Below, in pieces: positions 4,877-62,694 of a DNA stretch of 64,000 nt. A program made the translations under genes and the position numbers. Location of the stretch: positions 19,280-83,279 of the forward strand of contig JAQTTB010000001.1 in NCBI GenBank assembly GCA_028710985.1, read 5' to 3'. The notes below the pieces were generated by a model. The model saw only the letters and a list, made by a program, of their open reading frames with translations. It had not been told where the DNA came from and searched no databases. How positions within the stretch are numbered: position 1 is the stretch's first letter; every line of letters starts with the position of its first letter. This DNA comes from Patescibacteria group bacterium. Its GTDB lineage: Bacteria > Patescibacteriota > Patescibacteriia > JAHJFT01.

Positions 4877-4899
4877 GAGAGGGGTTGATATGTTAAAAT

Positions 4900-4972
4900 A
4901 GCTTGTAGGAAGTAGCTTGTAGCTTGTAGGACGCGACCTATTAAGATCCTACAAGCTACAAGCTACAAGCTA
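4900..4972. repeat. large inverted repeat built from heptamer triplets (AGCTTGTAG x3 / CTACAAGCT x3) ending 3 nt before the ATG of the 4975 gene
   Basis: Left arm agcttgtaggaagtagcttgtagcttgtagga and right arm tcctacaagctacaagctacaagct flank a 15-nt loop cgcgacctattaaga. A possible TTGTAG-N16-TATTAA promoter is embedded in it. Confidence 0.6.
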
Positions 4973-7112: not shown

Positions 7113-8275
7113 TTTACCAACTCCAGCAATTTGCTGATATAATTTTCCAGTCCATATTCCGCCACCGTCTTCCGACAGGCCTCGCTCATGCCCGCAAGCC
7201 GCGCCGGATCCGCTATGAACGGCTTAATTTTCGCAAGCAGCTCGTCTTTCGCCCCCGGCGTAAAAGTCCACCCGTTCTCCCCTTGGCGCACGAGCTCCCC
7301 GGCTCCGCCAATGCGCGATACAAGCACCGGCACTCCGGCAGCCAGGCTCTCGGAGATTACGGCCGGCGAATTCTCGTAGCAAAATGACGGCACGATGGCG
7401 AGATCCGCCCCGGAAAAAAGTCGTCCAATCTCTTCACGCGGCCGCGGACCTAAAATATTTATTCGCGCATCGCCCGCGGCGATTTTTTTTATTTCTCCAA
7501 GATCCGAACCACCACCCGCAACCGCAAGATGCCAATCGCCGGGCAGATCCTTAAGGGTTTCAACCAGCCACCGCGCGCCCTTGTGTTTCTCAATCTGGCC
7601 GAGATACAGCAGATTAAGCCCGGGGTGCAATATTTTTTCCGCCATCCCTGCCAGGGGCGCGGGATTCGGCAAAACCTCAACGCGCGAGTCTTTAAAAAAT
7701 CCCTTATTTTTATAAAATTCCGCGAGCCAGCGCGACGGCGAAACAATGAGCCGCGGCGAACCAAAAAGCCGGCGCGAGTACGCTTCCCAGATCTTCCGCA
7801 CGAACGAACGCTCCGCCTTTGCTTCTTCCCCCCAGAGCATGAGTCCGTTCGGCGCAGAAAGCTGAATGTCGTGTGCCACGTGCACCCAGCGCTCGCTCTC
7901 TGCCTTGAGCGCCAAAACTCCGAGCATGCCCAGGCCCCTAAGATTATGGCTTACGATAAGATCCGGCACTTCTTCCCTAATCGCGCGCCGCATCATGCCC
8001 AAACCCGCAAGGCTCATGGCGTCCAGCGCGTGCCAGATCGCGCGCGCCGCAAAACCGTGCTCTCCGATATTTTTATACCAAAAAATATTAAGCGGAAAAA
8101 AGCGGCAAATTTTAATGCCATCCGCCTTGTCGCAGGCAAAACCGCGCGGACCGCTCGAGAGCACCGCCACCTCGTGCCCGGCATCGCGAAACCCGCGCGC
8201 CTGGAGTTCAGCCACCCGCTCGGCTCCGCCCCGCGCCTCGGGCGGATACAAATTTGAGACAATCAGAATCTTCAT
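7109..8275 (-). CDS. glycosyltransferase family 4 (GT-B)
   Basis: MKILIVSNLYPPEARGGAERVAE N-terminus. C-terminal EX7E-type region (FCYENSPAVISESLAAGVPVL). Confidence 0.8.
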   Translation of the reverse strand: MKILIVSNLYPPEARGGAERVAELQARGFRDAGHEVAVLSSGPRGFACDKADGIKICRFFPLNIFWYKNIGEHGFAARAIWHALDAMSLAGLGMMRRAIREEVPDLIVSHNLRGLGMLGVLALKAESERWVHVAHDIQLSAPNGLMLWGEEAKAERSFVRKIWEAYSRRLFGSPRLIVSPSRWLAEFYKNKGFFKDSRVEVLPNPAPLAGMAEKILHPGLNLLYLGQIEKHKGARWLVETLKDLPGDWHLAVAGGGSDLGEIKKIAAGDARINILGPRPREEIGRLFSGADLAIVPSFCYENSPAVISESLAAGVPVLVSRIGGAGELVRQGENGWTFTPGAKDELLAKIKPFIADPARLAGMSEACRKTVAEYGLENYISKLLELVK

Positions 8276-9420
8276 AATTTAAAATATTGCCCACGCATCT
8301 TCCCGACGATTACCGGCCAGGTAAATTCCGCCTCAATCCTCTCGCGCGCCCGCTCCCCCATTTCTTTTACACTCTCCGGATCCGCGGCCATATCGTTAAT
8401 CGCCTTGGCAAGGCCGTTAACATCCTTCGGCGCCACCAGCGCGCCGGTTCTGCCGTCCTGCACCACATAGCGCACGCCCGGAAGACTGCTCGCGATCACC
8501 GGTTTTCCGCAGGCGCCGGCTTCGAGCGCCACGAGCCCGTAGGCTTCGGATTTATCAACCGAAGGAAATGTGAGCGCGTCGGCCAAATTATAATATTGCG
8601 GCAATTCGCGGTCATCCACTCCCCCGGCAAAAAATACGCGCTCCCCCAGGCCGGCGGAGGCGACGATCTGCTCAAACTCCGGCCGGCGGTCGCCGTCTCC
8701 CACGACAAGCAATTTAATCTTTTTATCTTTGACTGTCTTTACTGCCTCAATCAATTTATCCAGTCCCTTGAAATAATGCGCGCGGTCCAATCCGCCGACA
8801 AAGAGCAGGACAAAATCGCTGGCTAGAATATTATATTTTACGGCGAGCGTCTCCAGCCGGTGGCCGGGCGAAAAAAATTTCTCGTCCACCCCGAGATTTG
8901 AAACCACGAATTTTTCCGGATCCTGAGCCACGAATTTCGCCAGATCCCCGGCCTGGGCGTAATCAAGCGTGGATACAAAAACCTTATCCGCGGCCGCGAG
9001 AATCCGCCGCAAAAATAACCGCCGGTATAATCTGAAAAACAACCCTATTGCTCCCCTTCCTACCGTATCCATATGATACGTAACAACCAGTTTGTTCTTT
9101 TGTTCTTTTGTTCTTTTGTTCTTTTTCCAAAAAAGAGCCGCTTCCGCTCCGCCAAAAAACGGATAGTGCAAATGAACGACATCAAATCCGTCCAGCATGT
9201 CCGCAAGATGCGGCACCCAGGCGGCATTGCCGTAGCGGATGACCGGCTTAAGATAAATTACGTTAAAATCAAACTTCAGCCGCTCGGCTCCCCGGGGCGT
9301 CGGGCAAAACACCGTCACCTCGTCGCCGAGACGCGCGAGCTCGCGCGCGTGCGCGTATGCCACGTTGCCCATACCGCCGCGATAAGGAGGAAATGTCGAT
9401 GTGATTATCGCTATCCTCAT
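8272..9420 (-). CDS. glycosyltransferase family 4 (GT-B), with lysine-rich insertion encoded by an 8-bp x4 tandem repeat
   Basis: MRIAIITSTFPPYRGGMGNVAY N-terminus. GLVALEAGACGKPVIAS motif. 4-bp overlap with the downstream GT4. Confidence 0.8.
   Translation of the reverse strand: MRIAIITSTFPPYRGGMGNVAYAHARELARLGDEVTVFCPTPRGAERLKFDFNVIYLKPVIRYGNAAWVPHLADMLDGFDVVHLHYPFFGGAEAALFWKKNKRTKEQKNKLVVTYHMDTVGRGAIGLFFRLYRRLFLRRILAAADKVFVSTLDYAQAGDLAKFVAQDPEKFVVSNLGVDEKFFSPGHRLETLAVKYNILASDFVLLFVGGLDRAHYFKGLDKLIEAVKTVKDKKIKLLVVGDGDRRPEFEQIVASAGLGERVFFAGGVDDRELPQYYNLADALTFPSVDKSEAYGLVALEAGACGKPVIASSLPGVRYVVQDGRTGALVAPKDVNGLAKAINDMAADPESVKEMGERARERIEAEFTWPVIVGKMRGQYFKL
9092..9123. repeat. perfect tandem repeat TTGTTCTT x4 (8-bp unit) inside GT4 CDS 8272..9420
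   Basis: ttgttctt ttgttctt ttgttctt ttgttctt read directly from the sequence. It encodes KNKRTKEQKNK on the minus strand. The unit length is not a multiple of 3. Confidence 0.9.
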
Positions 9421-9439: not shown

Positions 9440-9590
9440 CCTTGTTTGGTTTAGTCAAAAGTTAAAAGTCAAAAGTCCAAAGTCAAGTCTAAAATTTTTT
9501 AGTCCAATCTCTCCAGCTGAATGTATCTATAACTTTTTGACTTTTAACTCAACTTTTAACTTTAGACTTTAGACTTTTAACTACAAAACA
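9440..9590. repeat. long imperfect inverted repeat made of AAAGTC/TAAAAGT-type short repeats, located between two co-directional GT genes
   Basis: Left arm agtcaaaagttaaaagtcaaaagtccaaagtcaagtctaaa. Right arm ctttttgacttttaactcaacttttaactttagactttagacttttaac. Confidence 0.6.
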
Positions 9591-11729: not shown

Positions 11730-11962
11730 TCGTCATTCCCGCGAAGGCGGGAATCCAGAAACAGTATACCTTGCGGATTCGATTTATAAACTGTCACACA
11801 AATCACTCCAAAGCGGATTGCAGTCTTCAATGAATTTAATCTTTTAGACCCTTTCCACTTATTGGAGGATGCAAATATAGAACTGCCGATAATCGGACAT
11901 AGCATAAATAAGTAGCCCCGAGATTAATTGGTTGTGGATTCCCGCCTTCGCGGGAATGACAG
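11730..11962. mobile_element. MITE-like 233-bp element with 26-bp terminal inverted repeats of the REP-like palindrome CGTCATTCCCGCGAAGGCGGGAATCC
   Basis: cgtcattcccgcgaaggcgggaatcc at 11730..11755 and its reverse complement ggattcccgccttcgcgggaatgac at 11936..11960. The interior is non-coding and AT-rich. The only ORF across it, 11702..11905, is the typical LDSRLRGND translation artefact of this palindrome. Confidence 0.6.
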
Positions 11963-11964
11963 TT

Positions 11965-12978
11965 CTAAATCCCAACCAACCCCTTCTGCACCCTTGAAAA
12001 ATCAATCGTCTTTTGAAGGCCCTCCTCAAGCCGCACGAGCGGAATCCAGTCTAGCCTCTCTTTGGCTTTGGTGATATCCGGAAGCCCAAGTTCGGTCATG
12101 AAAAGAAGCGGGGGTTCATGTTTGATTTCCGAGGATGAATTCACCATGGCGATTATTTTCTTTGCCACGTCGGCGAGCAGGAAATCCTGGTCCGATCCGA
12201 GATTCACGGGCCCGATATCCGCCGGCGCCTGCATCAGGCGCTTCAGCCCGTCAACAATATCCGAGACAAAACACAGGCTTGTTTTAAAACTTTCATCGCC
12301 GTAAATAACCAGTTCTTTGCCGTCAAGCGCGTCGGTGATAAAATCCGGTATCATCTGGCCGTCAAAAAGTTTCATGCGCGGCCCGTAGGTGCGGAAGATA
12401 CGCGCAATTTTCGCGTCGATCCCAAAAACTTGACTATAAGTCGCGACCATTGCTTCAGCGAAGCGCTTTCCCTCATCATAACAGGCGCGAGGCGAAATGG
12501 TTGAAACCCCGCCGATTTCATCTTCCCGAAAAGAAAGATGCTCTTCTTTGCGCCCTCCATAAATTACCGAACTGGATGTAAAGAGAAATTTTGCTTTGTA
12601 CTTCACCGCGATATCCAGGGCGTGCCTTGTTCCGACCGAGTTGGAAAGCGCGGTCTGCAGCTTAAATTCATCAAATCGTTTCGCCGATGTCGGACAGGCC
12701 AGATGATAAACTTCCTGAATTCCCTGAAAACGCAATTTGAACCTCTCAAGCTCGGGAAATGATTCCAGATCAAACGGTTCGTTGGTATCCAGCCGCAGAA
12801 ATTCAAAATCCGGATTCTGCATCAACCGGTCAATGTTTGATTCCGAGCTCGTCACAAAATTATCAATACAAATAACCTTGGCTTCATCCAAAAGCGACTC
12901 GCAGAGGTGTGAACCGATAAATCCGGCCCCGCCGGTGACAAGCACATTTTTCTTCTCAAATATGGGCGAAATTGGCAT
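11965..12978 (-). CDS. NAD-dependent epimerase/dehydratase, UDP-glucuronate decarboxylase (UXS)-like
   Basis: VLVTGGAGFIGSHL Rossmann motif. Short-chain dehydrogenase YxxxK region. 337 aa. Confidence 0.75.
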   Translation of the reverse strand: MPISPIFEKKNVLVTGGAGFIGSHLCESLLDEAKVICIDNFVTSSESNIDRLMQNPDFEFLRLDTNEPFDLESFPELERFKLRFQGIQEVYHLACPTSAKRFDEFKLQTALSNSVGTRHALDIAVKYKAKFLFTSSSVIYGGRKEEHLSFREDEIGGVSTISPRACYDEGKRFAEAMVATYSQVFGIDAKIARIFRTYGPRMKLFDGQMIPDFITDALDGKELVIYGDESFKTSLCFVSDIVDGLKRLMQAPADIGPVNLGSDQDFLLADVAKKIIAMVNSSSEIKHEPPLLFMTELGLPDITKAKERLDWIPLVRLEEGLQKTIDFSRVQKGLVGI

Positions 12979-13096
12979 AATTTTTGTATTTATTTTATCA
13001 AGTTTATATGTATATTTTAGACGAAATCACGCTTTTTGGCAAGGAGCGAGAATAATAATAAAACGAGCCGATTAAAGCCCGCTTTGTTCCATTGTT

Positions 13097-13552
13097 CTAT
13101 TGTTTTATTGTTCTCTTAAAAATGAATATTTTCTGAAAAAAGAAATTAATAAAATAGAGAATGGCATACACCACAAATTTTGCCGCCACGTCCCAGATTC
13201 CGAGGTAATGCACCGTGACAAACAGCAGGCCTTCGCCGATCAAAAAAACCACAAGCGCGTTAATCCAATAAACCGCATACTGCCTGACCACGCGCTTATC
13301 CGTATCGCCGAAAGTATAAGTCTTGTTAAACCAATAACCCACGATCGCGCCGAGCGTCATGCTCACAAAATTCGCCAAAAGATAATGTATGCCGAAAATT
13401 TTTGTGAGCAATAGATACGTCCCAAAATCAACGCCGGTCGCCCCGGTCCCCACGATCGTGAACCGCCACAGCTGTTTGATGGTTTGAAAAAGATTTGATT
13501 TTTGAGATATATTTTTGAGATTTGAGATTTGAGATTTGAGATTATCTTCCAT
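13097..13552 (-). CDS. GtrA family membrane protein (putative polyprenyl-phosphate-sugar flippase component)
   Basis: FTIVGTGATGVDFGTYLLLTKIFGIHYLLANFVSMTLGAIVGYWFNKTYTF is a GtrA-like four-helix core. The N-terminal 20 aa are encoded by a 7-bp x4 repeat. The true start may be an internal TTG. Confidence 0.65.
   Translation of the reverse strand: MEDNLKSQISNLKNISQKSNLFQTIKQLWRFTIVGTGATGVDFGTYLLLTKIFGIHYLLANFVSMTLGAIVGYWFNKTYTFGDTDKRVVRQYAVYWINALVVFLIGEGLLFVTVHYLGIWDVAAKFVVYAILYFINFFFQKIFIFKRTIKQ
13515..13542. repeat. perfect tandem repeat TTGAGAT x4 (7-bp unit) at the 5' end of the GtrA CDS, inside the GtrA/WbaP divergent promoter region
   Basis: ttgagat ttgagat ttgagat ttgagat, preceded by a degenerate tttgaga copy at 13501. 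Read directly from the sequence. Confidence 0.9.
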
Positions 13553-13613
13553 ACTCTTGAAATTTTATCTAATATTAGTTAATATATGCCCACAAGCACA
13601 TATATTATCTCCT

Positions 13614-14993
13614 ATGACCGACACCATTGTCAAAGTAAAGAAAGCCCTGCTCGTGCTCGGCGACCTCGCGGCCGCCTATTCTTCGCTTTATCTTACCCTG
13701 CTTTTACGCTACCGCGACGGCCTGAATCTTGAAGCCTGGCAGAGCCATCTCGTCCCGTTCACCGCAATTTACCTTGCCTGGATTGTGGTATTTTTTATAA
13801 GCGACCTTTATAACCTGAACACCGCGCGAAACACCGTGGATTTCCGCCGACGCTTCTTCCAGGCTCTGGCAATCAACGCCCTGATCGCGGTCGCCTTCTT
13901 CTACCTCAATCCCGCCGTCGCTATTGCGCCAAAAACCAACCTTATTATCAACATCGCAGTTTTTGCGATTCTCGCCTACTTTTGGCGCGCGATTTTCAAC
14001 CTCGCGGCTTCACATTCAATTTTCGCGAACCGCGTGCTCTTTATTGGTTCACAGAAAAAATTTCAAGACATCATGCCCGACCTCGCACGAGGCGCCTATC
14101 ACGACTGGAAGGTCGTTGCCGTTGTCGACCCGCAGGAGATTAAAGAATACCGCCGCGACAACGTCAGTTTTTATAAAAACACCACCCCGCTTTCCGAAAT
14201 CATTAACCAGGAAAAAATCAGCACCATCGTGCTCGGCCTCTCCCCGGAAGAGCACCCGCGTCTCGGAAGAGAACTCTACGACTGTATCTTTGCCCATTCA
14301 ATCGCAGTCGTGAATTTGCCGAAATTTTATGAAATCGTCACCCAGCGCCTGCCGGCCGATTTGCTTTCAGAATACTGGTTTTTGGAAAATATCAAAGAAA
14401 TGGACAAAAAATTCCACGACTCGGCAAAGGCCATCGCCGATATCGCCCTCTCAATCGCCTTTGGCGCATTTTTCCTCGCCACCCTACCGATTATCGCGGC
14501 CGCGACACTGATCGACAGCGGCTGGCCAATTTTTTACACCCAGAACCGCGTCGGCCGCCGAGGCAAAATTTTCAAAATCATCAAATACCGCACCATGTAC
14601 CGCGATGCCGAGCTCCAGGGCGCGCTCTGGGCTAAGCGCAACGATGCACGCATTACCCGCGTCGGCCGCTTGCTCCGCAAAACCCGGCTGGACGAACTGC
14701 CGCAGATTATCAATGTCCTCAAGACCGACATGAGCTTCATTGGCCCGCGGCCGGAACGCCCGGAATTTGTAGCTGATTTGGAACGCATGATGCCGTTCTA
14801 CGCTCTCCGCCACTTAACCCGGCCCGGACTCACCGGTTGGGCGCAAATCAATTATGAATACGCCGCGAGCTACGAGGAAAATTTGAAAAAACTACAATAC
14901 GATTTATACTATATCAAGAACCGGTCACTCCTCTTGGACTTTAAAATACTTTTAAAGACCGCCGGGATTGTAATAAGCAGGAAGGGGCAATAA
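13614..14993 (+). CDS. polyprenyl-phosphate hexose-1-phosphate transferase (WbaP/sugar transferase family, initiating phosphoglycosyl transferase)
   Basis: Five N-terminal TM helices and a central domain. The C-terminal bacterial sugar transferase domain carries KFRTMYRDAE...DELPQIINVLKTDMSFIGPRPERPEF. The start is moved to the ATG at 13614 (MTDTIVKVKK) to avoid overlap with the divergent GtrA gene. Confidence 0.8.
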   Translation: MTDTIVKVKKALLVLGDLAAAYSSLYLTLLLRYRDGLNLEAWQSHLVPFTAIYLAWIVVFFISDLYNLNTARNTVDFRRRFFQALAINALIAVAFFYLNPAVAIAPKTNLIINIAVFAILAYFWRAIFNLAASHSIFANRVLFIGSQKKFQDIMPDLARGAYHDWKVVAVVDPQEIKEYRRDNVSFYKNTTPLSEIINQEKISTIVLGLSPEEHPRLGRELYDCIFAHSIAVVNLPKFYEIVTQRLPADLLSEYWFLENIKEMDKKFHDSAKAIADIALSIAFGAFFLATLPIIAAATLIDSGWPIFYTQNRVGRRGKIFKIIKYRTMYRDAELQGALWAKRNDARITRVGRLLRKTRLDELPQIINVLKTDMSFIGPRPERPEFVADLERMMPFYALRHLTRPGLTGWAQINYEYAASYEENLKKLQYDLYYIKNRSLLLDFKILLKTAGIVISRKGQ

Positions 14994-43023: not shown

Positions 43024-43265
43024 ATCAATAAAATCCCTCTCTGCCTCTCCCTTCCTGCCTGCCGGCAGGCAGGTTGCATACTTTTGGTTACAAAAGTATG
43101 TCCTGCTGAAAGCAAACAAGAGTGGTGCTAGAAAAGATAATTATTGCCCAGACAGGTGGCAGGCAAGAACTTAAAAATCCCAATATTAAAACAACTTGTA
43201 CGATAATATATAATAGGATTCCCCCGGTACATTGAACCTGGATTCCCGCCTTCGCGGGAATGACA
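43024..43265. repeat. copy A of a ~215-240-bp intergenic repeat, containing the perfect palindrome CCTGCCTGCCGGCAGGCAGG, the hairpin CATACTTTTGgttaCAAAAGTATG, and a terminal REP-like palindrome (43240..43265)
   Basis: Near-identical to 56987..57199. The palindrome is at 43054..43073 and the hairpin at 43077..43100. Confidence 0.8.
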
Positions 43266-43369
43266 AAAGTAAGGCAGGAATGACAAATGGCGCTAAGATT
43301 TTTATAGCAAGATTCCCGCCGGAGCCTGCCCTCATGCAAATGGGGGGGGTGGCTAAAAATATCGTCAAC

Positions 43370-45661: not shown

Positions 45662-47620
45662 TTATTTTATTTCAACGGCATTAATATTGTCAAAAACGCC
45701 ACTGATAAAGCGCAGATTAATTTTATTATTATAAATTTCCGCGATGGCGATTCTCACCTCTCCGACAATATAGTCATAAAATGCTTTCAAGTCAAACTGA
45801 TTCGCCTGCGTCGCCCAGTTTGCGCTGCGGAGGAACGCGCCATTCCGATCGAATGATTTTATATATATATTTCCGTCTGTTTTATAAGTAACCAGTATCT
45901 CTTCTTCTTCGCCCGTATCCAAATTTTGCGTCGCAACGAATATTGGCCCCGTGATTTTCTCTGCCGCTTGAAAATTTGAAACCAAGACGCCACTCTTCCT
46001 AAATATCTTAATATGCAAAACACCGGCATCAATAAATCCCACGATTATTTCATCCGTGTCATCGGCATCAATATCTCCAGCCGTGACCGTAACGCCGCCG
46101 CGAAAACCAGAAGTATACGCCATAAAATTACCCTGAATTTCCCCTCTTTCATTAAACACTAGTATATGCGGACCGCCGCCCGGACCCGGCGCGGTGATAA
46201 TTTCATCGTTCACCGTCCGGCTGTCCACATTTCCGACGGCGATATTCACGCCACCGCGGAAAAGCGAATTATACGCAAAAAATTGTCCGTACAATTTCCC
46301 TGTCTCGCTAAAAATACGCACCTGCGGACCGCCGCCCGGACCCGCGCCGACCACAATTTCTTTTTGACCGTCATTATTTACGTCGCCGCTCTGAGCCGTG
46401 AACCCCTTTTTGAAACTATCCGGAAACACCGCGAAGCTATCTTTGACTTCCCCGCCGCTCCCAAGCTCACGGACAACCGGCGTAAAACCAAGCGGCGCAC
46501 CGATTACAAGCGATGAACCGCTCTTTGCCGCTTCAAGCGCCAACTCAAGCGCAGCGCGCGCATCCACGCGCGTTCCCAAGCCTCCGGCAAAATCCGGATT
46601 GATCCCGTCAATTATCACGCCGCTTTTTACCAAAATTTCATTGATTTCACGAGCCGAGAGCCCGGGCGCGATTGATTTCACGAGTGCGGACACGCCGGAA
46701 ACAATCGGCGCCGCAAACGAAGTGCCCGACCAATCGTCATCATAGAATGTATCAAAATCCGCAATTGCCGAGTTATAAACACGCGCGCTCCATATATCCA
46801 TGCCCGGTGCCGAAACATCAACGCAGGCTTTGCCAAAATTTGAAAATTTCGCTTTTTGATCCAACGTGTCGGTTGCCGCGACTCCAAGTACGTATATTTC
46901 ATTCTCATATTGATCAATGCACACCGGAAATTCATCGTACATATCCAAGTTCGAGCCGCCCGATTCGTCCGGCGTATTGCCGGCCGCCGCCACTACTACT
47001 ACTCCCGCTTCCCAGGCGCGGCGCACCGCAGTTGACATATCCTCGCTAAAATTAAAACCTACAAAACTCAAATTAATCACATCCGCACCATTTCGAATGG
47101 CGTAATAAATCGCTTTTGCCACATTGTCCGAGAATCCGTTACCCGTGGCATCGAGCACCTGAAGCGGCATTATCTTGCTCTCCCAGGTGATTCCGGCCAT
47201 GCCGTTCCGATTATTCCCTTCGGCTGCGATGATGCTCGCCACCGCCGTGCCATGGCTAATTCCCTCTTCCGCATATCCGTTGGAAAAATTCGGCAATATA
47301 TTTCCGTTATTATCCGAGAAATTCCATCCATTCACATCATCAATATAATCATTCTTATCATCATCGATTCCGTTTGCCGGAATTTCATCTTCATTGATCC
47401 AAGCATTGCCATCCAATTCCGGATGCGAAATATCCACGGCCGTATCAATCACTGCGACAATCACCTTCGGACTGCCGGTCGAAATATCCCAGGCGCGTTC
47501 GGCATCAATCTGACGCAAATACCACTGACGCGAAAAATCCGTATCGTTTGGGGTGAAAGCCTGCGCGCCTTGAACCGCAACGAATACAAAAATTATTGTG
47601 CAGAATATAAACTTTTTCAC
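45662..47620 (-). CDS. S8 family serine peptidase (subtilase) with signal peptide and C-terminal FG-GAP/VCBS-like repeats
   Basis: Catalytic triad contexts VIDTAVD, HGTAVASIIAA and GTSFAAPIVSG. Repeated DxDxDG...GGGPxxxxF modules. Confidence 0.85.
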   Translation of the reverse strand: MKKFIFCTIIFVFVAVQGAQAFTPNDTDFSRQWYLRQIDAERAWDISTGSPKVIVAVIDTAVDISHPELDGNAWINEDEIPANGIDDDKNDYIDDVNGWNFSDNNGNILPNFSNGYAEEGISHGTAVASIIAAEGNNRNGMAGITWESKIMPLQVLDATGNGFSDNVAKAIYYAIRNGADVINLSFVGFNFSEDMSTAVRRAWEAGVVVVAAAGNTPDESGGSNLDMYDEFPVCIDQYENEIYVLGVAATDTLDQKAKFSNFGKACVDVSAPGMDIWSARVYNSAIADFDTFYDDDWSGTSFAAPIVSGVSALVKSIAPGLSAREINEILVKSGVIIDGINPDFAGGLGTRVDARAALELALEAAKSGSSLVIGAPLGFTPVVRELGSGGEVKDSFAVFPDSFKKGFTAQSGDVNNDGQKEIVVGAGPGGGPQVRIFSETGKLYGQFFAYNSLFRGGVNIAVGNVDSRTVNDEIITAPGPGGGPHILVFNERGEIQGNFMAYTSGFRGGVTVTAGDIDADDTDEIIVGFIDAGVLHIKIFRKSGVLVSNFQAAEKITGPIFVATQNLDTGEEEEILVTYKTDGNIYIKSFDRNGAFLRSANWATQANQFDLKAFYDYIVGEVRIAIAEIYNNKINLRFISGVFDNINAVEIK

Positions 47621-53000: not shown

Positions 53001-53546
53001 TTATTTATTGTCTTGCTGCTCCATAATTTCACGTAATGCCGCGAGCGAGCGGTGAAGCAGAACCCGCACATTGTTTCCGCTTTTCTGCAAAATACTCGCG
53101 ATTTCGCCAGCTGTCATATTATCCAGATACTTCATCACCACAATCTCGCGATACTCATCCTTTAGTTTATTCAGCGCACGGTAAATCCTCGCCAAGTCAG
53201 ACTGCTTCTCCAGTTCCGCCAGTCCAACGATGTCCACTTCTCCGGCCGTCTCTTCCATGAGCTGAATATCGCTCTTTCTCTGCCGATAATGGTCAATGAC
53301 CAAATTCCGCGCAATTGTGTAGAGTAGGGCTCCCACACTTTTCACCGGCTGGCTGCCTGCAAGATAATCCCAGGCTTTTAAAAAAACCTCTGAACTCAAG
53401 TCTTCAGCTTCTTGTTCCGAGGATACTTTAAAAAAAATAAATCTATATATCTTGGCGCCGTAATCATCATATAACTCTGCAAATGCCCCTGCGTCCTGCT
53501 TCGCCTTGATCTTATAGACCAGTATTTTTTCTTTGAATTTATTCAT
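53001..53546 (-). CDS. RNA polymerase sigma-70 factor, ECF subfamily
   Basis: Region 2 (YDDYGAKIYRFIFFKV...VFLKAW) and region 4 HTH (MTAGEIASILQKSGNNVRVLLHRSLAAL). Confidence 0.8.
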   Translation of the reverse strand: MNKFKEKILVYKIKAKQDAGAFAELYDDYGAKIYRFIFFKVSSEQEAEDLSSEVFLKAWDYLAGSQPVKSVGALLYTIARNLVIDHYRQRKSDIQLMEETAGEVDIVGLAELEKQSDLARIYRALNKLKDEYREIVVMKYLDNMTAGEIASILQKSGNNVRVLLHRSLAALREIMEQQDNK

Positions 53547-53702: not shown

Positions 53703-53999
53703 ATGTCTTCATCCATTCGCTTATCCGTATCCGAAGCCGCCCGGCTTTTTGGCATTAGTGAAAAAACCCTGCGCCGCGCCATCATTAATAAGGAAATCAA
53801 CTATATCGTGGTTGCCGGCCGGTACAAGCTAAATTTTGAAAGCCTGGTCAAGTGGTCCCAGCAAAAAACCACGGTGCGCCGCAAATCCGAAAAATACGGC
53901 ATCGACCAATTTGTGGATAAATGGCGCCTCTCCGCCACCCTCTACTCCCCCAACCCACCCGCCACGGAACAAGAGAACAATTCAACAATACAACAATAG
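53703..53999 (+). CDS. small helix-turn-helix DNA-binding protein (excisionase-family HTH)
   Basis: SVSEAARLFGISEKTLRRAIINKEINYIVVAGRYKLNFESLVKW matches the XIS/MerR-like HTH pattern. 98 aa. Confidence 0.6.
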   Translation: MSSSIRLSVSEAARLFGISEKTLRRAIINKEINYIVVAGRYKLNFESLVKWSQQKTTVRRKSEKYGIDQFVDKWRLSATLYSPNPPATEQENNSTIQQ

Positions 54000-54061
54000 A
54001 ACGACCTATAAAAAAACAAGCGTTTTACCTATGCTTGTTTTTTTGTTGTATTGTTGAATTG
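53978..54061. terminator. nested bidirectional terminator: a 19-bp perfect outer inverted repeat (CAATTCAACAATACAACAA / TTGTTGTATTGTTGAATTG) enclosing an inner AACAAGC-loop-GCTTGTT hairpin flanked by an A-run and a T-run
   Basis: Outer arms at 53978..53996 and 54043..54061. Inner hairpin at 54015..54039. The left arm encodes the last residues of the HTH protein. Confidence 0.65.
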
Positions 54062-54074
54062 TTGCGTTGTCCGC

Positions 54075-55353: not shown

Positions 55354-55664
55354 TTAAACAACCCACTATACCACATTTTTGCGTTTTTGTCAACTCTCGA
55401 GTCCGGCCAGCTCTTGACAAAACCCGCAATTTATGATATACTTTACCGTTAAAGTCAAAATGGAACAGTCGTATCTTATGACAAATTTTGGCTAAAGCAA
55501 GCCCTTTACAACCTTCTCCCAAGCGTCGAATCTACATTTTCTGGCTATTTTCAGCAATGGTTGGCACACAGTTCAACCCCACCTGCTCGGCTTATATTAT
55601 GCAGATTCATCGCTTAGGAGAAGCAAAACAACCTAAACGCAAAAAACACCGAGGAGGGTGTAAA

Positions 55665-56699
55665 ATGAAGAACTCCAGGATAGTGCTGATTCTCTGCGCC
55701 CTGGTACTGATGGCCTGCGAGACGAGGTACGTGGACGTGGGCGGCGAGCCCGACACCTCCATCGACACCGCGTCCGACAGCGTGGAGCTCTGCTCCGACG
55801 GCCTGGACAACGACATGGACGGCCTGGTCGACTGCAACGACAACGACGGCGACGAGAACTGCCCGCCGTGCGCGGACGCGTCAACCGACGCCGTGGCCGA
55901 CGAGATCGAGGACAGCGCAGAAACCGACGTCCCGCCCGTGGAGCTCTGCTCCGACGGCCTGGACAACGACTTCGACGGACTCGTGGACTGCAACGACGGG
56001 GACGACTGCTGCGATGAAGCAGTGTGCGTTACGAGCGAGCACTGCGCTTCGGAAGACGCTTCAAGCGACTCCGAAGAGGAAGCCGACGCAGTCTCCGACT
56101 CGGGTGCGGATTCGGATCCCGCCGAGGACCCCGTGCCTGACACTGATCCCGACACCGCCTCCGACCCGGATAGCGCAAGCGATCCGGACGCGGTCTCTGA
56201 CCCGGACGTGGTGGACGCCGAAGCCGACGCAGCTGACATCCTCCACTCCGGCCTGGCCACGTTCAAGTGGTGCCGGCCCATGACCATGGCGCGCCCCGAC
56301 CACATTCTCGCGGAATGCTTTGTCTGGGGAAGCCTCTATGAAAGCTGGGATGACTCCTGGGAGCTGGCAACCGGCTCTCCGGACTTCGTCGCACCGGCCG
56401 ACAGCGACTGCATCGAGTTCACCCTGCCAGATCTGGATTACACGCTCCTCGGAATAAGCGTAGAGTGCAACATCACTGCCTATTCCGACTCGGCGTACGG
56501 GCCGTGGGGACGCATCTACGCTCTCGGCGAGTGCACGTGCGGCGGCAGCTGTGTCGTAAAAGGCACGCTTACCGTCCGTTCCGGTCCCGACGCTGATGAC
56601 GCAACCGCCTTGGATCTCACGAGCCTAGTCGTGCAGAATCCGCGATGCGCGTCCCTGAGCGACCAGGCCGGCAACTACGTCCTCTCACCTATTCCATAG
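55665..56699 (+). CDS. secreted acidic lipoprotein with thrombospondin type-3-like calcium-binding repeats (high-GC compositional outlier)
   Basis: Strong RBS GAGGAGG 7 nt upstream of the ATG at 55665. Lipobox LVLMAC. Two repeats: [27 protein letters not shown] and [22 protein letters not shown]. Poly-(DPD[ST]AS) tract. GC above 60%. The ORF track's longer start at 55488 was rejected. Confidence 0.6.
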
Positions 56700-56845: not shown

Positions 56846-56986
56846 TGCATCTTAGTCAGAACATGGGGTTCGGGGGCGCAACTGAGCATGGCGCTAGGAA
56901 GCAGTGAATTGCCTATTTGCCGAGAGCGAACCCGCCTGCCAACGCCTGGCGTAGGCCTGGCGGGCAGGTTTGCGACCCCGAAACTT

Positions 56987-57199
56987 CCTGCCTGCCGGCA
57001 GGCAGGTTGCATACTTTTGGTTACAAAAGTATGTCCCGCTGAAAGCGAACAAGAGTGATGCTAGAAAACAATAATCAATACCCAGACAAGCGGCAGGCTG
57101 TGGCTAGAAAATCCCAATATTAAAACAACTTGCACGAAAATATTTAATAGGATTCCCCCGGTACATTGAACCTGGATCCCCGCCTTCGCGGGGATGACG
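56987..57199. repeat. copy B of the ~215-bp intergenic repeat (palindrome at 56987..57006, hairpin at 57010..57033, REP-like palindrome at 57174..57199)
   Basis: Same orientation as copy A at 43024..43265, with an almost base-for-base match: cctgcctgccggcaggcaggttgcatacttttggttacaaaagtatgtcc(c/t)gctgaaagc... then ...taataggattcccccggtacattgaacctgga. Confidence 0.8.
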
Positions 57200-57247
57200 A
57201 AGAGAGCACTTTGCCACTTACCGTCATTCCCGCGAAAGCGGGAATCC
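57174..57247. repeat. inverted pair of REP-like palindromes (GGATCCCCGCCTTCGCGGGGATGACG, 24-nt spacer, CGTCATTCCCGCGAAAGCGGGAATCC) forming a ~28-bp-stem hairpin
   Basis: Units at 57174..57199 and 57222..57247. The second is followed by agaaaca, as at 11756. Confidence 0.8.
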
Positions 57248-57261
57248 AGAAACAAAGCCCC

Positions 57262-57385
57262 TCCAAAATCCCTCTCTGACACGTCGCTCGCGAGCGACGT
57301 GTCTCTGTCTCCCCCTTCCTGCCTGCCGGCAGGCAGGTCAGCCACCCCGAAACTTTTTGGTTACTTTTTGGTTACAAAAAGTAAC
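57262..57385. repeat. partial third copy of the intergenic repeat (palindrome CCTGCCTGCCGGCAGGCAGG at 57318..57337 and hairpin GTTACTTTTTGgttaCAAAAAGTAAC at 57360..57385)
   Basis: aaaatccctctctg...ctcccccttcctgcctgccggcaggcagg matches 43030..43073. Confidence 0.7.
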
Positions 57386-59411: not shown

Positions 59412-61469
59412 TTATTTAATCATGGACAATGTAAAAACCCCGGTTGTCTCGGCGATAATCTCATCGCGTCCATCATTGTCAATATCCGTCGCCGCAACGC
59501 CGACTCCGGAATTATCGTGCACATCATAAGCAAAAAATCCGCCGCCGTCGAGCGCCTGCCCTTTTTCGTTGAACACGCGCACATGCGGACCGCCGCCCAG
59601 GCCCGGACCAGTGATTATTTCATCCGCGCCATCGCCATCCGTATCCCCGGCCGCGACATTCACTCCGCCACGAAAATTTTTATCATAAGCGAAAAATCCC
59701 GGATTGATCAGGCGTCCGTCCAGCCCAAAAACGCGCACATGCGGACCCCCGCCGACTCCGGCTCCGGCAATTATCTCTTTCCAGCCGTCGCCGTTCAAAT
59801 CTCCGATCGTCACATTCACCCCGCCACGAAAATTTTTATCATAAGCGAAAAATCCCGGATTGATTAAAACGCCATCGCGGTTAAAAATTCTAATTTGCGG
59901 ACCGCCGCCATTTTCCGTTCCGGTGACGATTTCCATAAAACCATCCTTGTCCAAATCTCCGGCTGTGATATTTATGCCACCGCGATATTTATCCGTATAG
60001 GGATAGAACTGGGCATGCACCTTGCCGGAGGCATCATAAATCGTCACGCGATTTATATCACCGACCACGGTTTCGTCCTGACCGTCACTATTCAAGTCAG
60101 CAATCGCCACATTACTTCCGCCCCGGTAATCCGCTTCGTAGGCAAAAAAACCGGTGCGATAAACTTCGCCGTAACGGTTGAATATTCTTACAAAACTTCC
60201 GTTTGTGAATGTCGTGTTGGCAATTTTTTCGATCGGCCGAATCAGCACAATGCCGTCGCGCGGCGCGACAACTGTGCCGCTCACGATGGACCCGTCGTTT
60301 TTTTTCGGATCCTGGACACCGTGAATTTTTTCATATTCTCCAAAAAATTCGGTTGACTGGTTGCTGTAAGTAGAATTCACCAGCACCAAGCCGTTTTGAA
60401 ATTCGCGCTTCCACAAACCCTCCATTAAATCCGAACCGGAAGAAGTGAGGTTTTCCGCCGGACCCTTGGGAGCGCCGAGATATGCACCGTATTCATCATA
60501 CCACCAGGTTTGGCCGTGATCCTGGTCACCGAAATCAAAACTGTAATATCCGTCAAAAAGCATAGCGCTCGTATAACCGAAACGCATTGTCTTGTAATCA
60601 TTCTGGCTGCCGGTATTGTTCGTATTGGAATTTAGAATATTGGACGATGGCTGCTGCGATTCCGTGACGGCATCGCGGTAGTTTTTAAGCGCGTACGTCC
60701 AATCTTTGCTCGAAAAATTCTCAACCGTCACACCGTCGGTATGGTTTGCGTAATACGGGCCATCATTCAGCATCACGAGATATTTGGAGCCAATCGCACT
60801 CGCGGTTGCATCTAATGCTTTCGCGATTCCTTCTTTCCACAGGCGATTTGCGTCGCTTGATCCCGCCGGCTGACCGTCGCGGTTAAAATCAAGATTTCCG
60901 CCGGCAAAATATGTTACATCCTCCCAGCCATTATCAAAAAAAACACCATCCCATTTTCCCGAAGCGATAATTTCATTCTTAACAAAACTCGGCAAATAAT
61001 CATTCCAGCGTTGACCGGCAACCGAAAGGCATTCGTTCGTGATATTCATTATCCAATTGCCCTGCCAGAATGATCTTTTGTTTCCGGATGTATCAACGAG
61101 GTACCATTCATTTTTAATTCCCTGGGCCAATTTACGCCGCAGCGAACTTGAGGCCAGGCCGTCAATACTTTGTCGCACTTCAACGAGCGGAATATAAGCG
61201 AATATTTTTATATCCGGATTGATTCGCCTCATCGTGTCAATGGCGGAGGGATTGGATGTCTGGATATCCATGTCCAAAATCACCACATCCCATTCTGCAA
61301 GATCTCGCGCCTTGTCGTCTGCCACGCTCCAATGCAAAAAAATATTGGCCAACCGCGGCGCGTCCGTATTCAAAGGCGCACTTGCCGCCAAACCAGGCCA
61401 ACTAATAAATATAATTAACAAAATAAAAAAGCCTTGAACCCAAAACTTTAATTTACGGAGAATTTTCAT
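59412..61469 (-). CDS. secreted protein with an N-terminal TIM-barrel glycoside-hydrolase-like (GHL) domain and C-terminal FG-GAP/VCBS repeats
   Basis: Signal peptide beginning at MKILRKLKFWVQGFFILLIIF. The start is chosen at 61469; the ORF track start of 61574 adds 35 non-signal residues. Seven or more DxDxDG...GGGP(H/Q)VRVF modules. A 156-bp tandem duplication lies inside. Confidence 0.55.
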   Translation of the reverse strand: MKILRKLKFWVQGFFILLIIFISWPGLAASAPLNTDAPRLANIFLHWSVADDKARDLAEWDVVILDMDIQTSNPSAIDTMRRINPDIKIFAYIPLVEVRQSIDGLASSSLRRKLAQGIKNEWYLVDTSGNKRSFWQGNWIMNITNECLSVAGQRWNDYLPSFVKNEIIASGKWDGVFFDNGWEDVTYFAGGNLDFNRDGQPAGSSDANRLWKEGIAKALDATASAIGSKYLVMLNDGPYYANHTDGVTVENFSSKDWTYALKNYRDAVTESQQPSSNILNSNTNNTGSQNDYKTMRFGYTSAMLFDGYYSFDFGDQDHGQTWWYDEYGAYLGAPKGPAENLTSSGSDLMEGLWKREFQNGLVLVNSTYSNQSTEFFGEYEKIHGVQDPKKNDGSIVSGTVVAPRDGIVLIRPIEKIANTTFTNGSFVRIFNRYGEVYRTGFFAYEADYRGGSNVAIADLNSDGQDETVVGDINRVTIYDASGKVHAQFYPYTDKYRGGINITAGDLDKDGFMEIVTGTENGGGPQIRIFNRDGVLINPGFFAYDKNFRGGVNVTIGDLNGDGWKEIIAGAGVGGGPHVRVFGLDGRLINPGFFAYDKNFRGGVNVAAGDTDGDGADEIITGPGLGGGPHVRVFNEKGQALDGGGFFAYDVHDNSGVGVAATDIDNDGRDEIIAETTGVFTLSMIK
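59657..59863. repeat. intragenic tandem duplication (156-bp period; 51-bp near-identical cores at 59657..59707 and 59813..59863) within the FG-GAP region
   Basis: attcac(t/c)ccgccacgaaaatttttatcataagcgaaaaatcccggattgat occurs twice. It is also visible as the repeated HSATKIFIISEKSRID / HPATKIFIISEKSRID stretches in the antisense ORF 59376..59867. Confidence 0.8.
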
Positions 61470-62694
61470 TTTTGAGTTTAAGCGATGACTCATATATCTC
61501 AAATATTTTTTTATAGTGATCCGCCGCGCCGTTTTCTTTCTCCACCCTCGCCCTCCCCTGTTTTCCGAACTCAATAAGTTTTTTCGGATTTTTTTCCGCG
61601 TCCAGGATTCTTGCCGCTAAATCGTCCGGATTTCTTGGTTCATAGAGATAACCGCTCATACCGTGCTCAACCATTTCCGGAATTCCACCAAGCCGCGACG
61701 CGATTATCGCCTTGCCGAGCGCTTGGGCCTCGAGCACGCCATATGGATAATTATCGTGCATGAGCGTCGGCACGATTACCGCGCGGCATCCGCCAATTTC
61801 AGCCTTGAGCGCGTCCGGCGCAAGATGTCCGAAAAATTCAATATTTTTCGCGCCGCTGGTTTTTACAAAATCCTTAAGTCCGTTCTCGAGCGGTCCGGAT
61901 CCGGCGATCTTCAATTTAATATTCTTGTGTTTGCAAAAAACGCTTACCAGATCGGAGACTCCCTTTTCGTGCGCCAGCCGCCCGGCATAGAGATAGTAGT
62001 CTCCGACTGCTTCGTGCGGCTCATATTCATCAAGGAAAACAAAGTTCGGCACTACCTCAATGCGCTTCACCCGTACCCCCCAATCCTTAATTTTTTTGGT
62101 AAAGAAACGGCTTGGGCTAACGTAGCAATCTACCACATTTTCGTATATTTGTCTAGTCTTGGCAATGGCCATTTCCGCGGCCGCGAGAGCGCTCGAGGCC
62201 AGCGAATTCTGCGCGCATCTGTAAATAATGGCATTGTAATATTTGTGTTTGAAACACCTCTCGCAGATTCTGCCGCGGGTGAATAATTTATAATTCGGAC
62301 AAATGAGTTTATAGTCATGGAGGGTCAGGATTTTTGGCGCCGGCGAATCGCGGAGCGCATCCAGCACCGATGTACTCAGCTGATGATAGATATTATGGAG
62401 ATGCACAATATCGGGTTTAAAATCCGCGAGCAGTTTTTTCAAATTACTGCGCGCTTCGAAATTATATAAATACCCTGCCGCCTTGCCGGCTTCTCTTAAG
62501 ATTCCTTCGCGGCGGGTGTAATCAACTTCGGAAACAAAATACTTGCTCCATACGGATTTATCATTTTCACGGCCCTTCATGGAGAAGAATGCGACTTCGT
62601 GGCCCTGCCGCTTCAGGAGCTCCGCTAGGTCAAAAAAATAAGTTTCCGCTCCGCCGCGCCGGTAAAAAAATTTATTAATTAATAATATTTTCAT
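61453..62694 (-). CDS. glycosyltransferase family 4
   Basis: MKILLINKFFYRRGGAETYFFDLAELLKRQGHEV N-terminus. Typical GT4 C-terminal half. Confidence 0.8.
   Translation of the reverse strand: MKILLINKFFYRRGGAETYFFDLAELLKRQGHEVAFFSMKGRENDKSVWSKYFVSEVDYTRREGILREAGKAAGYLYNFEARSNLKKLLADFKPDIVHLHNIYHQLSTSVLDALRDSPAPKILTLHDYKLICPNYKLFTRGRICERCFKHKYYNAIIYRCAQNSLASSALAAAEMAIAKTRQIYENVVDCYVSPSRFFTKKIKDWGVRVKRIEVVPNFVFLDEYEPHEAVGDYYLYAGRLAHEKGVSDLVSVFCKHKNIKLKIAGSGPLENGLKDFVKTSGAKNIEFFGHLAPDALKAEIGGCRAVIVPTLMHDNYPYGVLEAQALGKAIIASRLGGIPEMVEHGMSGYLYEPRNPDDLAARILDAEKNPKKLIEFGKQGRARVEKENGAADHYKKIFEIYESSLKLKNENSP

Follow-up and report, generated by a model that had tools for sequence, protein, structure and literature searches.

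The 64,000-nt stretch of DNA analyzed here (the window; contig JAQTTB010000001.1 of assembly GCA_028710985.1, positions 19,280 to 83,279), from a Patescibacteria group bacterium, carries a heptanucleotide tandem repeat with the unit TTGAGAT (the gtrA tract, also array e) at the 5′ end of gtrA, a gene that is divergent from wbaP. The window GtrA is identical to NCBI protein MDD4994878.1, which belongs to a Patescibacteria metagenome-assembled genome (MAG) with a contig of 744,538 bp. The gene is the first in an operon encoding GtrA, an epimerase/dehydratase, a family 2 glycosyltransferase (GT2), a DUF2304 protein, another GT2, and two family 4 glycosyltransferases (GT4), and relatives keep the order WbaP ↔ GtrA–epimerase–GT2–DUF2304–GT2. 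A first-pass annotation, made from the letters of the window, had placed the repeat in a surface-glycan gene about 60 bp from the WbaP gene; this description agrees with the data, as gtrA (PF04138) heads a conserved glycan operon divergent from a WbaP-type gene and the gap measures 61 nt. The features at the gtrA/wbaP junction, where both promoters are predictions of a consensus scan, are the following:

13097..13552, minus strand: gtrA, GtrA-family gene encoding 151 amino acids (aa) (Pfam PF04138, E = 1.2e-21, aa 30–145)
13550..13552, minus strand: gtrA start (ATG), the sole usable canonical one, preceded by an in-frame TAA 15 nt upstream
13514..13543, minus strand: perfect period-7 run (array e), TTTGAGA × 4.29 when read on the plus strand (exact scan)
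13473..13513, minus strand: decayed older TTGAGAT copies, comprising an exact TTGAGAT (13502–13508), TTGATTT (13495–13501), and TCAA-ending remnants
13553..13613: divergent gtrA/wbaP intergenic region, 61 nt
13633..13604, minus strand: predicted gtrA promoter, TTGACA-18-GATAAT (11/12 consensus positions), reaching into the wbaP start
13557..13585, plus strand: predicted wbaP promoter, TTGAAA-17-TAATAT (9/12 consensus positions), outside the tract
13614..14993, plus strand: wbaP, encoding a WbaP-type polyprenyl-phosphate sugar transferase (phosphoglycosyl transferase) of 459 aa (Pfam PF02397)

The four perfect TTGAGAT units reported by the first-pass annotation are present on the plus strand at 13515–13542, where they correspond to AATCTCA × 4.3 on the coding strand (TCTCAAA × 4, 13541..13514). 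A fifth exact unit (13502–13508) is separated from the perfect run by the 6-nt spacer ATATTT; the plus-strand letters from 13500 to 13552 are ttttgagatatatttttgagatttgagatttgagatttgagattatcttccat. Tandem Repeats Finder (TRF) delimited a degenerate array at 13491–13543 with 7.7 copies and 74% matches, and the TCAA-ending remnants reach approximately position 13473. The perfect copies are nearest the ATG and the decayed ones farther away, as would be anticipated if the tract were still slipping. The window contains three perfect arrays (period 5–12, at least three copies), as compared to a mean of 0.15 and a maximum of 1 in 100 dinucleotide-preserving shuffles of the window; the TTGAGAT tract is therefore real and non-random. 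The unit did not recur in the window, nor was it found at the related loci examined, and none of the 30-mers of the tract was repeated anywhere else within the window. A 28-mer of the tract was present in 10 unrelated IMG/VR stretches and is, therefore, not diagnostic.

The tract occupies nt 10–39 of the gtrA coding sequence, i.e., codons 4–13 (the first-pass annotation had given codons 5–14), and encodes the peptide ..NLKSQISNLKN.... The first-pass annotation had also considered that gtrA might start at an internal TTG, which would turn the tract into a promoter region shared with wbaP. This possibility did not withstand inspection of the reading frame; the canonical in-frame starts that follow the ATG at 13552 are a GTG at codon 34 and then a TTG at codon 48, which is located inside the first transmembrane segment (TM1), and starts at either codon would remove the Q27-L-W-R-F...G35...D42 block that is invariant in homologues. 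Because of this loss, the tract is to be regarded as gtrA coding sequence and not as promoter. Shine-Dalgarno (SD)-like motifs are rare in this genome, with 5 among 52 long open reading frames (ORFs), and the A/U-rich gtrA leader lacking an SD motif is typical in this respect. A simple sequence repeat (SSR) that switches expression through promoter spacing (hmw, nadA, or fim type) does not describe this locus, where the tract is located 3′ of the gtrA ATG and outside the predicted wbaP promoter; consistently, the consensus scan passed no promoter with a TTGAGAT unit as its −35 element. We also evaluated a wbaP start at a TTG inside the tract (13536), which would yield a 485-aa ORF, and rejected it, since orthologues have 458 aa and translation from the ATG at 13614 yields 459 aa. 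The exact 459-aa WbaP product is on record, and the longer form taken by one Logan gene call is a caller artefact. Programmed ribosomal frameshifting and transcriptional slippage were set aside after inspection of the sequence, which revealed neither a long homopolymer nor a slippery heptamer (X XXY YYZ) in frame.

The nearest other GtrA proteins were 60–65% identical to the window GtrA and share the N-terminal tail MNKFExxLxxIFFFVKxExVxQLWRF. In the DNA alignment, remnants of this ancestral tail (ATCTTTTTC...AAACC..CAGCTGTGGCGG) are still present in the window gtrA; from the array as far as ACC they are translated in a different frame, which is set right again by an 8-nt deletion. The shifted frame of the remnants together with the 8-nt deletion indicates that the tail was remodelled by indels, and selection seems, as judged from these alignments, to act only on the continuity of the frame from the ATG to QLWRF. 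The orthologue alignments rule out that the tract encodes a peptide conserved in frame among homologues; it is such conservation that, according to the first-pass annotation, would have argued against a switch. Orthologous gtrA/wbaP pairs present the same compact divergent layout (approximately 75 nt) without an array. In the closest relative (GCA_018813925.1, contig JAHJAN010000042.1, hereafter L052), the NCBI gene model for GtrA (MBU0648851.1, P0002, 125 aa; L052 1095–1160) begins too late; both the conserved N-terminal tail and an independent Logan call (P0007, 147 aa), which reads MNSLNKFETFLIRIFFFIKKETVAQLWRF, put the start 66 nt upstream of the P0002 start, directly after an AAGCTA-type array.

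Each unit gained or lost would shift the reading frame, because the tract begins 9 nt past the only usable start, inside the ORF, and its 7-nt unit is not a multiple of three. The gtrA coding sequence was rebuilt in silico with 0 to 8 TTGAGAT units, and the frameshift predicted by the first-pass annotation for any change of a 7-bp copy number was obtained. Full-length GtrA resulted only with 1, 4, or 7 copies (144, 151, and 158 aa, respectively), while 0, 2, 3, 5, 6, and 8 copies led to products of 36–67 aa. The unit contains no stop codon in any of the three sense frames (on the antisense strand, TGA occurs in each frame), and three units encode the heptad NLKSQIS. The uninterrupted 4.3 heptamer copies are above chance and above the threshold of three units applied to heptanucleotide SSRs in Haemophilus influenzae (PMC2651432).

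These observations lead us to favour, tentatively and at slightly less than an even chance, the reading that a dispensable GtrA N-terminal tail has been overwritten by the tract, an active heptanucleotide microsatellite prone to slippage, which provides contingency-type translational ON/OFF control of gtrA. Replication slippage would add or remove a TTGAGAT unit and thereby shift the gtrA reading frame; alleles with 1, 4, or 7 copies would express full-length GtrA (ON) and all others truncated peptides (OFF). Such a switch would act on the first gene of a surface-glycan operon, which encodes a glycan-translocation protein of the GtrA family, and its switching rate would be expected to be low, since there are only about four copies. 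The tract itself would be one outcome of a tendency, seen across the lineage, for 7–8 nt arrays to arise at unconstrained gene termini, and the ability to switch may be a by-product of this tendency and not a dedicated adaptation.

Logan contigs were available from SRR22315506 and SRR22315509, in which the same strain had been assembled independently (k = 31). Four contigs from these samples were 100% identical to the window wherever they cover it and contained the same tract units. The wbaP-side contigs of SRR22315509 and SRR22315506 ended at 13514 and 13515, while the gtrA-side contigs ended at 13541 and 13539. In a k = 31 de Bruijn simulation, a clonal four-copy sequence caused no break, mixtures of four copies with 5-, 6-, or 7-copy alleles caused breaks exactly at 13514 and 13543, and a three-copy allele caused breaks elsewhere (13507/13536 and 13521/13550). 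The observed contig ends are located 0–4 nt from the breaks simulated for a mix of four and more copies. As a control, a longer perfect array (array b, 35 nt, with an 8-nt unit) was crossed intact in three Logan contigs of these samples; other contig breaks were found in array c (9568), in AT-rich sequence (25400), and, in SRR22315508, inside wbaP (14568). Overall, the breaks lend moderate, circumstantial support to heterogeneity in copy number. The same contigs bear on the question whether four copies are the true sequence at all. An assembly artefact or collapsed repeat is highly improbable, since the MAG contig and the four Logan contigs agree on the units and flanks at 100% identity and reads are much longer than the 30-nt run; what speaks for it is that the k = 31 contigs break in the tract.

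Several findings weigh against a switch at gtrA. The gtrA-side (left) contigs end 2–4 nt short of the simulated break, although a comparable scatter of 3 nt was found at another contig end, at a repetitive extragenic palindromic (REP)-like sequence (11932 and 11935). The breaks could be explained equally well if the genome (744 kb), or a different organism of the sample, contained a second (TTGAGAT) array of about five or more copies; another run of this unit exceeding 30 nt would lead to an identical assembly graph. The 28-mer of the tract also occurs in the IMG/VR stretches mentioned above. No alternative allele was found; the MAG and all tract-reaching contigs of the two samples fit four copies, and the GtrA protein cluster has a single member. 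No GtrA orthologue examined has a repeat at the site of the tract. Proven SSR switch loci typically have about 10 or more units. The gtrA tract, with four perfect units (28–30 nt), does not reach this length and is at the bottom of the range for proven switches. Finally, no special selection for switching is needed, because similar arrays are frequent in this lineage, where most are non-coding hairpins. Searches for close relatives in which copy number could be compared yielded no close strain in the genome and metagenome collections: the best WbaP identity in a scan of genome contigs was 46% (76% on one incomplete contig, L012), a metagenome scan yielded four loci, all at 63% or less, the exact-protein look-up of GtrA returned no match, and look-ups via neighbouring genes returned the same strain only. 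Two pairs of comparison loci from other species were nearly or completely identical (L053 and L054, 99.9%, without indels; L070 and L052, 100%), showed no array indels, and were therefore uninformative on array variation.

The first-pass annotation had regarded such a repeat as unexpected in a genome resembling those of the Candidate Phyla Radiation (CPR). This expectation has to be given up; TRF identified at least nine arrays of 7–8 nt units (3.4–7.7 copies) in the window, which occupy intergenic sequence, loops, or the ends of genes, and each intercistronic gap of the operon contains such an array in the closest relative. Array density in the window (approximately 1 per 5 kb) compares with approximately 1 per 25 kb in 47 other loci retrieved via WbaP or GtrA homologues. 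The other arrays discussed here, together with a terminator, are:

4899–4929 and 4949–4972: array pair a, units TAGCTTG / CTACAAG, inverted pair
9091..9125, minus strand: array b, perfect TTTGTTCT × 4.4 with an 8-nt unit, inside the GT4 gene at 8272..9420 of the gtrA operon
9453–9486 and 9530–9582: array pair c, units AGTCAAA / TAACTTT, inverted pair
13084..13114, minus strand: array d, TTGTTCTA × 3.9 with 86% matches, spanning the gtrA stop codon
13085..13060, minus strand: predicted terminator 3′ of gtrA
53967–54002 and 54035–54064: array pair f, units GAACAATA / TTGTTGTA, inverted pair
L052 905–1095, 1548–1695, 2785–2980, and 3650–3735: array-pair hairpins of the closest relative

Array b is in frame, encodes the variable loop KKNKRTKEQKNK, lacks an inverted partner, and has a unit without a stop codon in any sense frame. 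It is the sole other orphan perfect array within a coding region and represents a second potential frameshift tract of the glycan operon. With tract e at the 5′ end and array d at the 3′ end, both termini of the small gtrA gene derive from arrays. Units of the TTGTTCT type were found repeatedly, at 9091, 13084, and 53966–54049 (12 matches as compared to 0.5 expected).

The frequency of these arrays raises the possibility that the gtrA tract is a neutral by-product of the array-forming habit of the lineage (slippage, perhaps combined with a mismatch repair that is weak or missing), effectively stable at four copies and with out-of-frame variants purged. On this view, the tract is tolerated because the GtrA N-terminal tail is unconstrained, and it has no regulatory or bet-hedging role; we regard this as quite possible, though short of likely. 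The view is consistent with the number of arrays in the window, with the location of arrays where constraint is weakest, which fits the U-shaped distribution of SSRs in proteins (PMC3315296), with the location of the relatives' arrays at other, non-orthologous places, and with the failure to recover a variant allele. In addition, heptanucleotides are described as the commonest class of long SSRs in prokaryotes, non-pathogens included (Mrazek 2007, as summarized in PMC4679880). On the other hand, point mutations would soon defuse a perfect run of 30 nt in an essential frame, where it poses a liability, the coding arrays b and e are perfect while the non-coding arrays are mostly degenerate, and contigs of two samples break exactly at the gtrA tract and not at array b.

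In contrast to the gtrA tract, most arrays form inverted pairs. Pairs a, c, and f fold as long periodic-stem hairpins (ΔG −39 to −48 kcal/mol; z −4.7 to −9.9), and inverted array pairs overall fold with z values of −3.1 to −9.9. The hairpin at 4899–4972 ends 2 nt before the ATG (4975) of a 698-aa ORF without a Pfam match; of hairpins a, c, and f, one is located between GT2 and GT4 genes and one encloses a terminator between convergent genes. In L052, an array pair is present in each intercistronic gap of the GtrA–epimerase–GT2–DUF2304 operon, and the 3′ arm of the pair often ends 3–10 nt before the following ATG; L012 has an array pair around the terminator after wbaP (436–530), and L053 has arrays at the gtrA 3′ end. 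The window hairpin c and the GtrA–epimerase hairpin of L052, both with AAAGTYA units, are 83% identical, with 26 nt exact, at non-orthologous sites, a likeness that suggests mobility or a conserved binding factor. The gtrA tract does not belong to this class of periodic-stem hairpins; a role as a hairpin arm was ruled out, as it has no inverted partner array within 12900–13800 and the folding of the tract region is no better than that of shuffles on either strand (z +0.85 and 0.00). Arrays of approximately four copies of 7–8 nt units were also observed beside WbaP-type genes in unrelated phyla, one of them as an inverted pair (L018 2195–2437, a Terriglobia MAG, and L039 5906–6087, a Prevotellaceae MAG); the association of arrays with polysaccharide loci may thus be broader than this lineage.

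A dedicated, previously undescribed system, in which 7–8 nt periodic arrays at the boundaries of surface-glycan genes operate both as hairpins and as orphan frameshift arrays (in gtrA and the GT4 gene), appears unlikely. It would accommodate the finding that unit families (AAAGTYA, with 26 identical nt) are common to genomes whose proteins have diverged by 35% and are located at non-orthologous sites, which argues for mobility or conserved factor binding. The lineage-wide periodic arrays and hairpins are, in any case, a more unusual feature than the gtrA tract itself. These hairpins at gene boundaries affect assembly (through contig breaks) and gene calling (through array-derived N- and C-terminal tails), and possibly also operon expression.

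The tract could also act in cis as an RNA or DNA element, be it as an unstructured, G-free, A/C/U-rich initiation region, a tandem binding site for an RNA- or DNA-binding factor, a role that has been proposed for the TAACTGA heptamers of Beggiatoaceae, or an element upstream of the wbaP promoter; we consider such a role rather improbable. The gtrA mRNA contains a 73-nt G-free stretch (13545..13473), the longest of its strand within the window, which encodes the entire N-terminal tail of GtrA as far as QLWRF. The 5′ region of this mRNA is less structured than shuffles (by the z of +0.85 given above), SD-like motifs are scarce in this genome, and the arrays without a partner (b, d, and e) are each rich in A/C when read as mRNA. 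Arrays of relatives adjoin start codons, as do the TAACTGA repeats of Beggiatoaceae (PMC4679880), and the occurrence of common unit families at non-orthologous sites argues for function or mobility of the class as a whole. On the wbaP side, TTGAGA resembles a −35 hexamer and the tract is located 14–43 nt upstream of the predicted wbaP −35 element. These points are countered by the finding that TTGAGAT occurs neither elsewhere in the window nor at related loci, which leaves no regulon-like pattern, and by the orthologous gtrA/wbaP layouts without an array, which imply that neither promoter nor translation needs it. Moreover, a scan of the whole window revealed no match to an Rfam family, and the promoter scan returned no candidate that uses the repeat unit as its −35 element.

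Among described systems, the poly-ψ variable number tandem repeat (VNTR) of neuO is the closest analogue of a switching gtrA tract, by analogy and not by homology. neuO, an O-acetyltransferase gene of the CUS-3 prophage in Escherichia coli K1, carries 2–93 copies of an AAGACTC unit, the first of which lies 2 nt behind the ATG; the encoded heptad, RLKTQDS, forms a dispensable N-terminal extension, and the gene is ON when the copy number is a multiple of three (PMC3046976, PMC13001214). In both genes, a heptanucleotide is located a few nt past the start of a surface-glycan gene, one copy number in three maintains the frame while the others lead to truncation, and three units encode a polar 7-aa heptad in a dispensable N-terminal extension (RLKTQDS in neuO and NLKSQIS here). 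The neuO unit, when rotated to CTCAAGA, matches the gtrA unit CTCAAAT at 5 of 7 positions. The ON phase differs, since neuO requires n = 0 mod 3 and the gtrA tract n = 1 mod 3. The gtrA tract further differs in that it belongs to a GtrA-family gene (PF04138) with the unit TCTCAAA and not to a NeuO gene with the unit AAGACTC, in that it has four copies and is known from sequence, while neuO has 2–93 copies and measured switching, and in that a four-TM GtrA takes the place of a left-handed β-helix acetyltransferase on a prophage, in unrelated hosts and contexts. Copy numbers in established loci are commonly higher, at approximately 20 for neuO and 13–38 for hmw tracts (PMC13001214, PMC2651432, PMC3046976).

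The gtrA tract resembles the contingency loci of Haemophilus, Neisseria, and Campylobacter (PMC2651432, PMC3315296) in that a perfect frame-shifting SSR is located in the 5′ part of a surface-structure ORF and, as in such loci of host-adapted bacteria, a second tract is found in a glycosyltransferase gene of the same operon; it differs from them by its low copy number, its presence in an environmental Patescibacteria MAG, and the many non-coding arrays of the same size class around it. It falls within the class of long SSRs, which are defined as repeats of 5–11 nt units that are longer than statistically expected for the genome (Mrazek 2007, as described in PMC4679880). The TAACTGA repeats of Beggiatoaceae (PMC4679880) are similar to the arrays described here in that 7–8 nt units form arrays of 2–8 copies at gene boundaries, often beside starts, in genomes with few SD sites. 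However, one unit dominates genome-wide in the TAACTGA repeats, while units here vary by site (TTGAGAT being unique in the window), many inverted pairs here form hairpins, and the gtrA tract is located inside an ORF and not upstream of it. Within the CPR, our literature search identified no slipped-strand switch of surface glycans, only the in-frame hypervariable 9-mer repeat of a Gracilibacterium. This hypervariable repeat gene (PMC6851277) and the tandem repeats of Borgs (PMC9879509) represent precedents for fast-evolving perfect repeats that fragment assemblies, and both encode polar or disordered segments in surface proteins; their ORF units are, however, multiples of three and remain in frame, while variation of the units in the window, with 7 and 8 nt, would switch the frame. 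The genome-wide heptamer arrays of cyanobacteria, known as short tandemly repeated repetitive (STRR) sequences, belong to the same comparison group as the TAACTGA repeats.

Several other features of the window were observed. A 25-kb low-GC island (16000–41000; GC content 0.32–0.42 as compared to approximately 0.48 elsewhere) consists of nearly one single run of minus-strand genes, including genes for a Wzx-like flippase, GT4s, methyltransferases, and many unannotated ORFs, and contains none of the clear arrays a–f; it probably represents a variable or horizontally acquired polysaccharide locus. The REP-like palindrome GTCATTCCCGCGAAGGCGGGAATCC is present in at least four copies, in both orientations (11732–11758, 11935–11961, 43238–43264, and 57223–57249), with Logan contigs ending at one of them (at 11932 and 11935). 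A non-coding repeat of approximately 230 nt is found at 43038–43267 and 56971–57201 (and also at 57302–57338), 13.9 kb apart, with 85–96% identity; it contains the palindrome CTTCCTGCCTGCCGGCAGGCAGG as well as the REP-like palindrome and may be an element similar to miniature inverted-repeat transposable elements or a small RNA gene. Direct repeats with a period of 156 nt (46040–46365, 59560–59935, and 55781–56004) are located in the ORFs at 45662..47620, 59412..61574, and 55488..56699, respectively, and indicate repeat-domain proteins, probably with a surface location. Lastly, a gene encoding an extracytoplasmic function (ECF)-type sigma factor (53001..53546, minus strand) is divergent from a small gene encoding an excisionase-like helix-turn-helix (HTH_17) protein (53703..53999), the C-terminal codons of which belong to array f.

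Taken as a whole, the gtrA tract is a plausible, as yet unproven, low-copy contingency-type tract, and its variation in copy number, as well as its importance to the cell, is what we infer from the frame logic and the contig breaks described above. Ultra-small CPR bacteria are host-attached and phage-exposed and have few regulators, a setting in which contingency loci are thought to be beneficial. Should the tract vary, it would be the first case found in which strand slippage turns a surface-glycan gene of the CPR ON and OFF. If the arrays at surface-glycan gene boundaries form a dedicated system, they would provide population-level surface variation for an episymbiont with a minimal genome and would constitute the first SSR phasome in the CPR.

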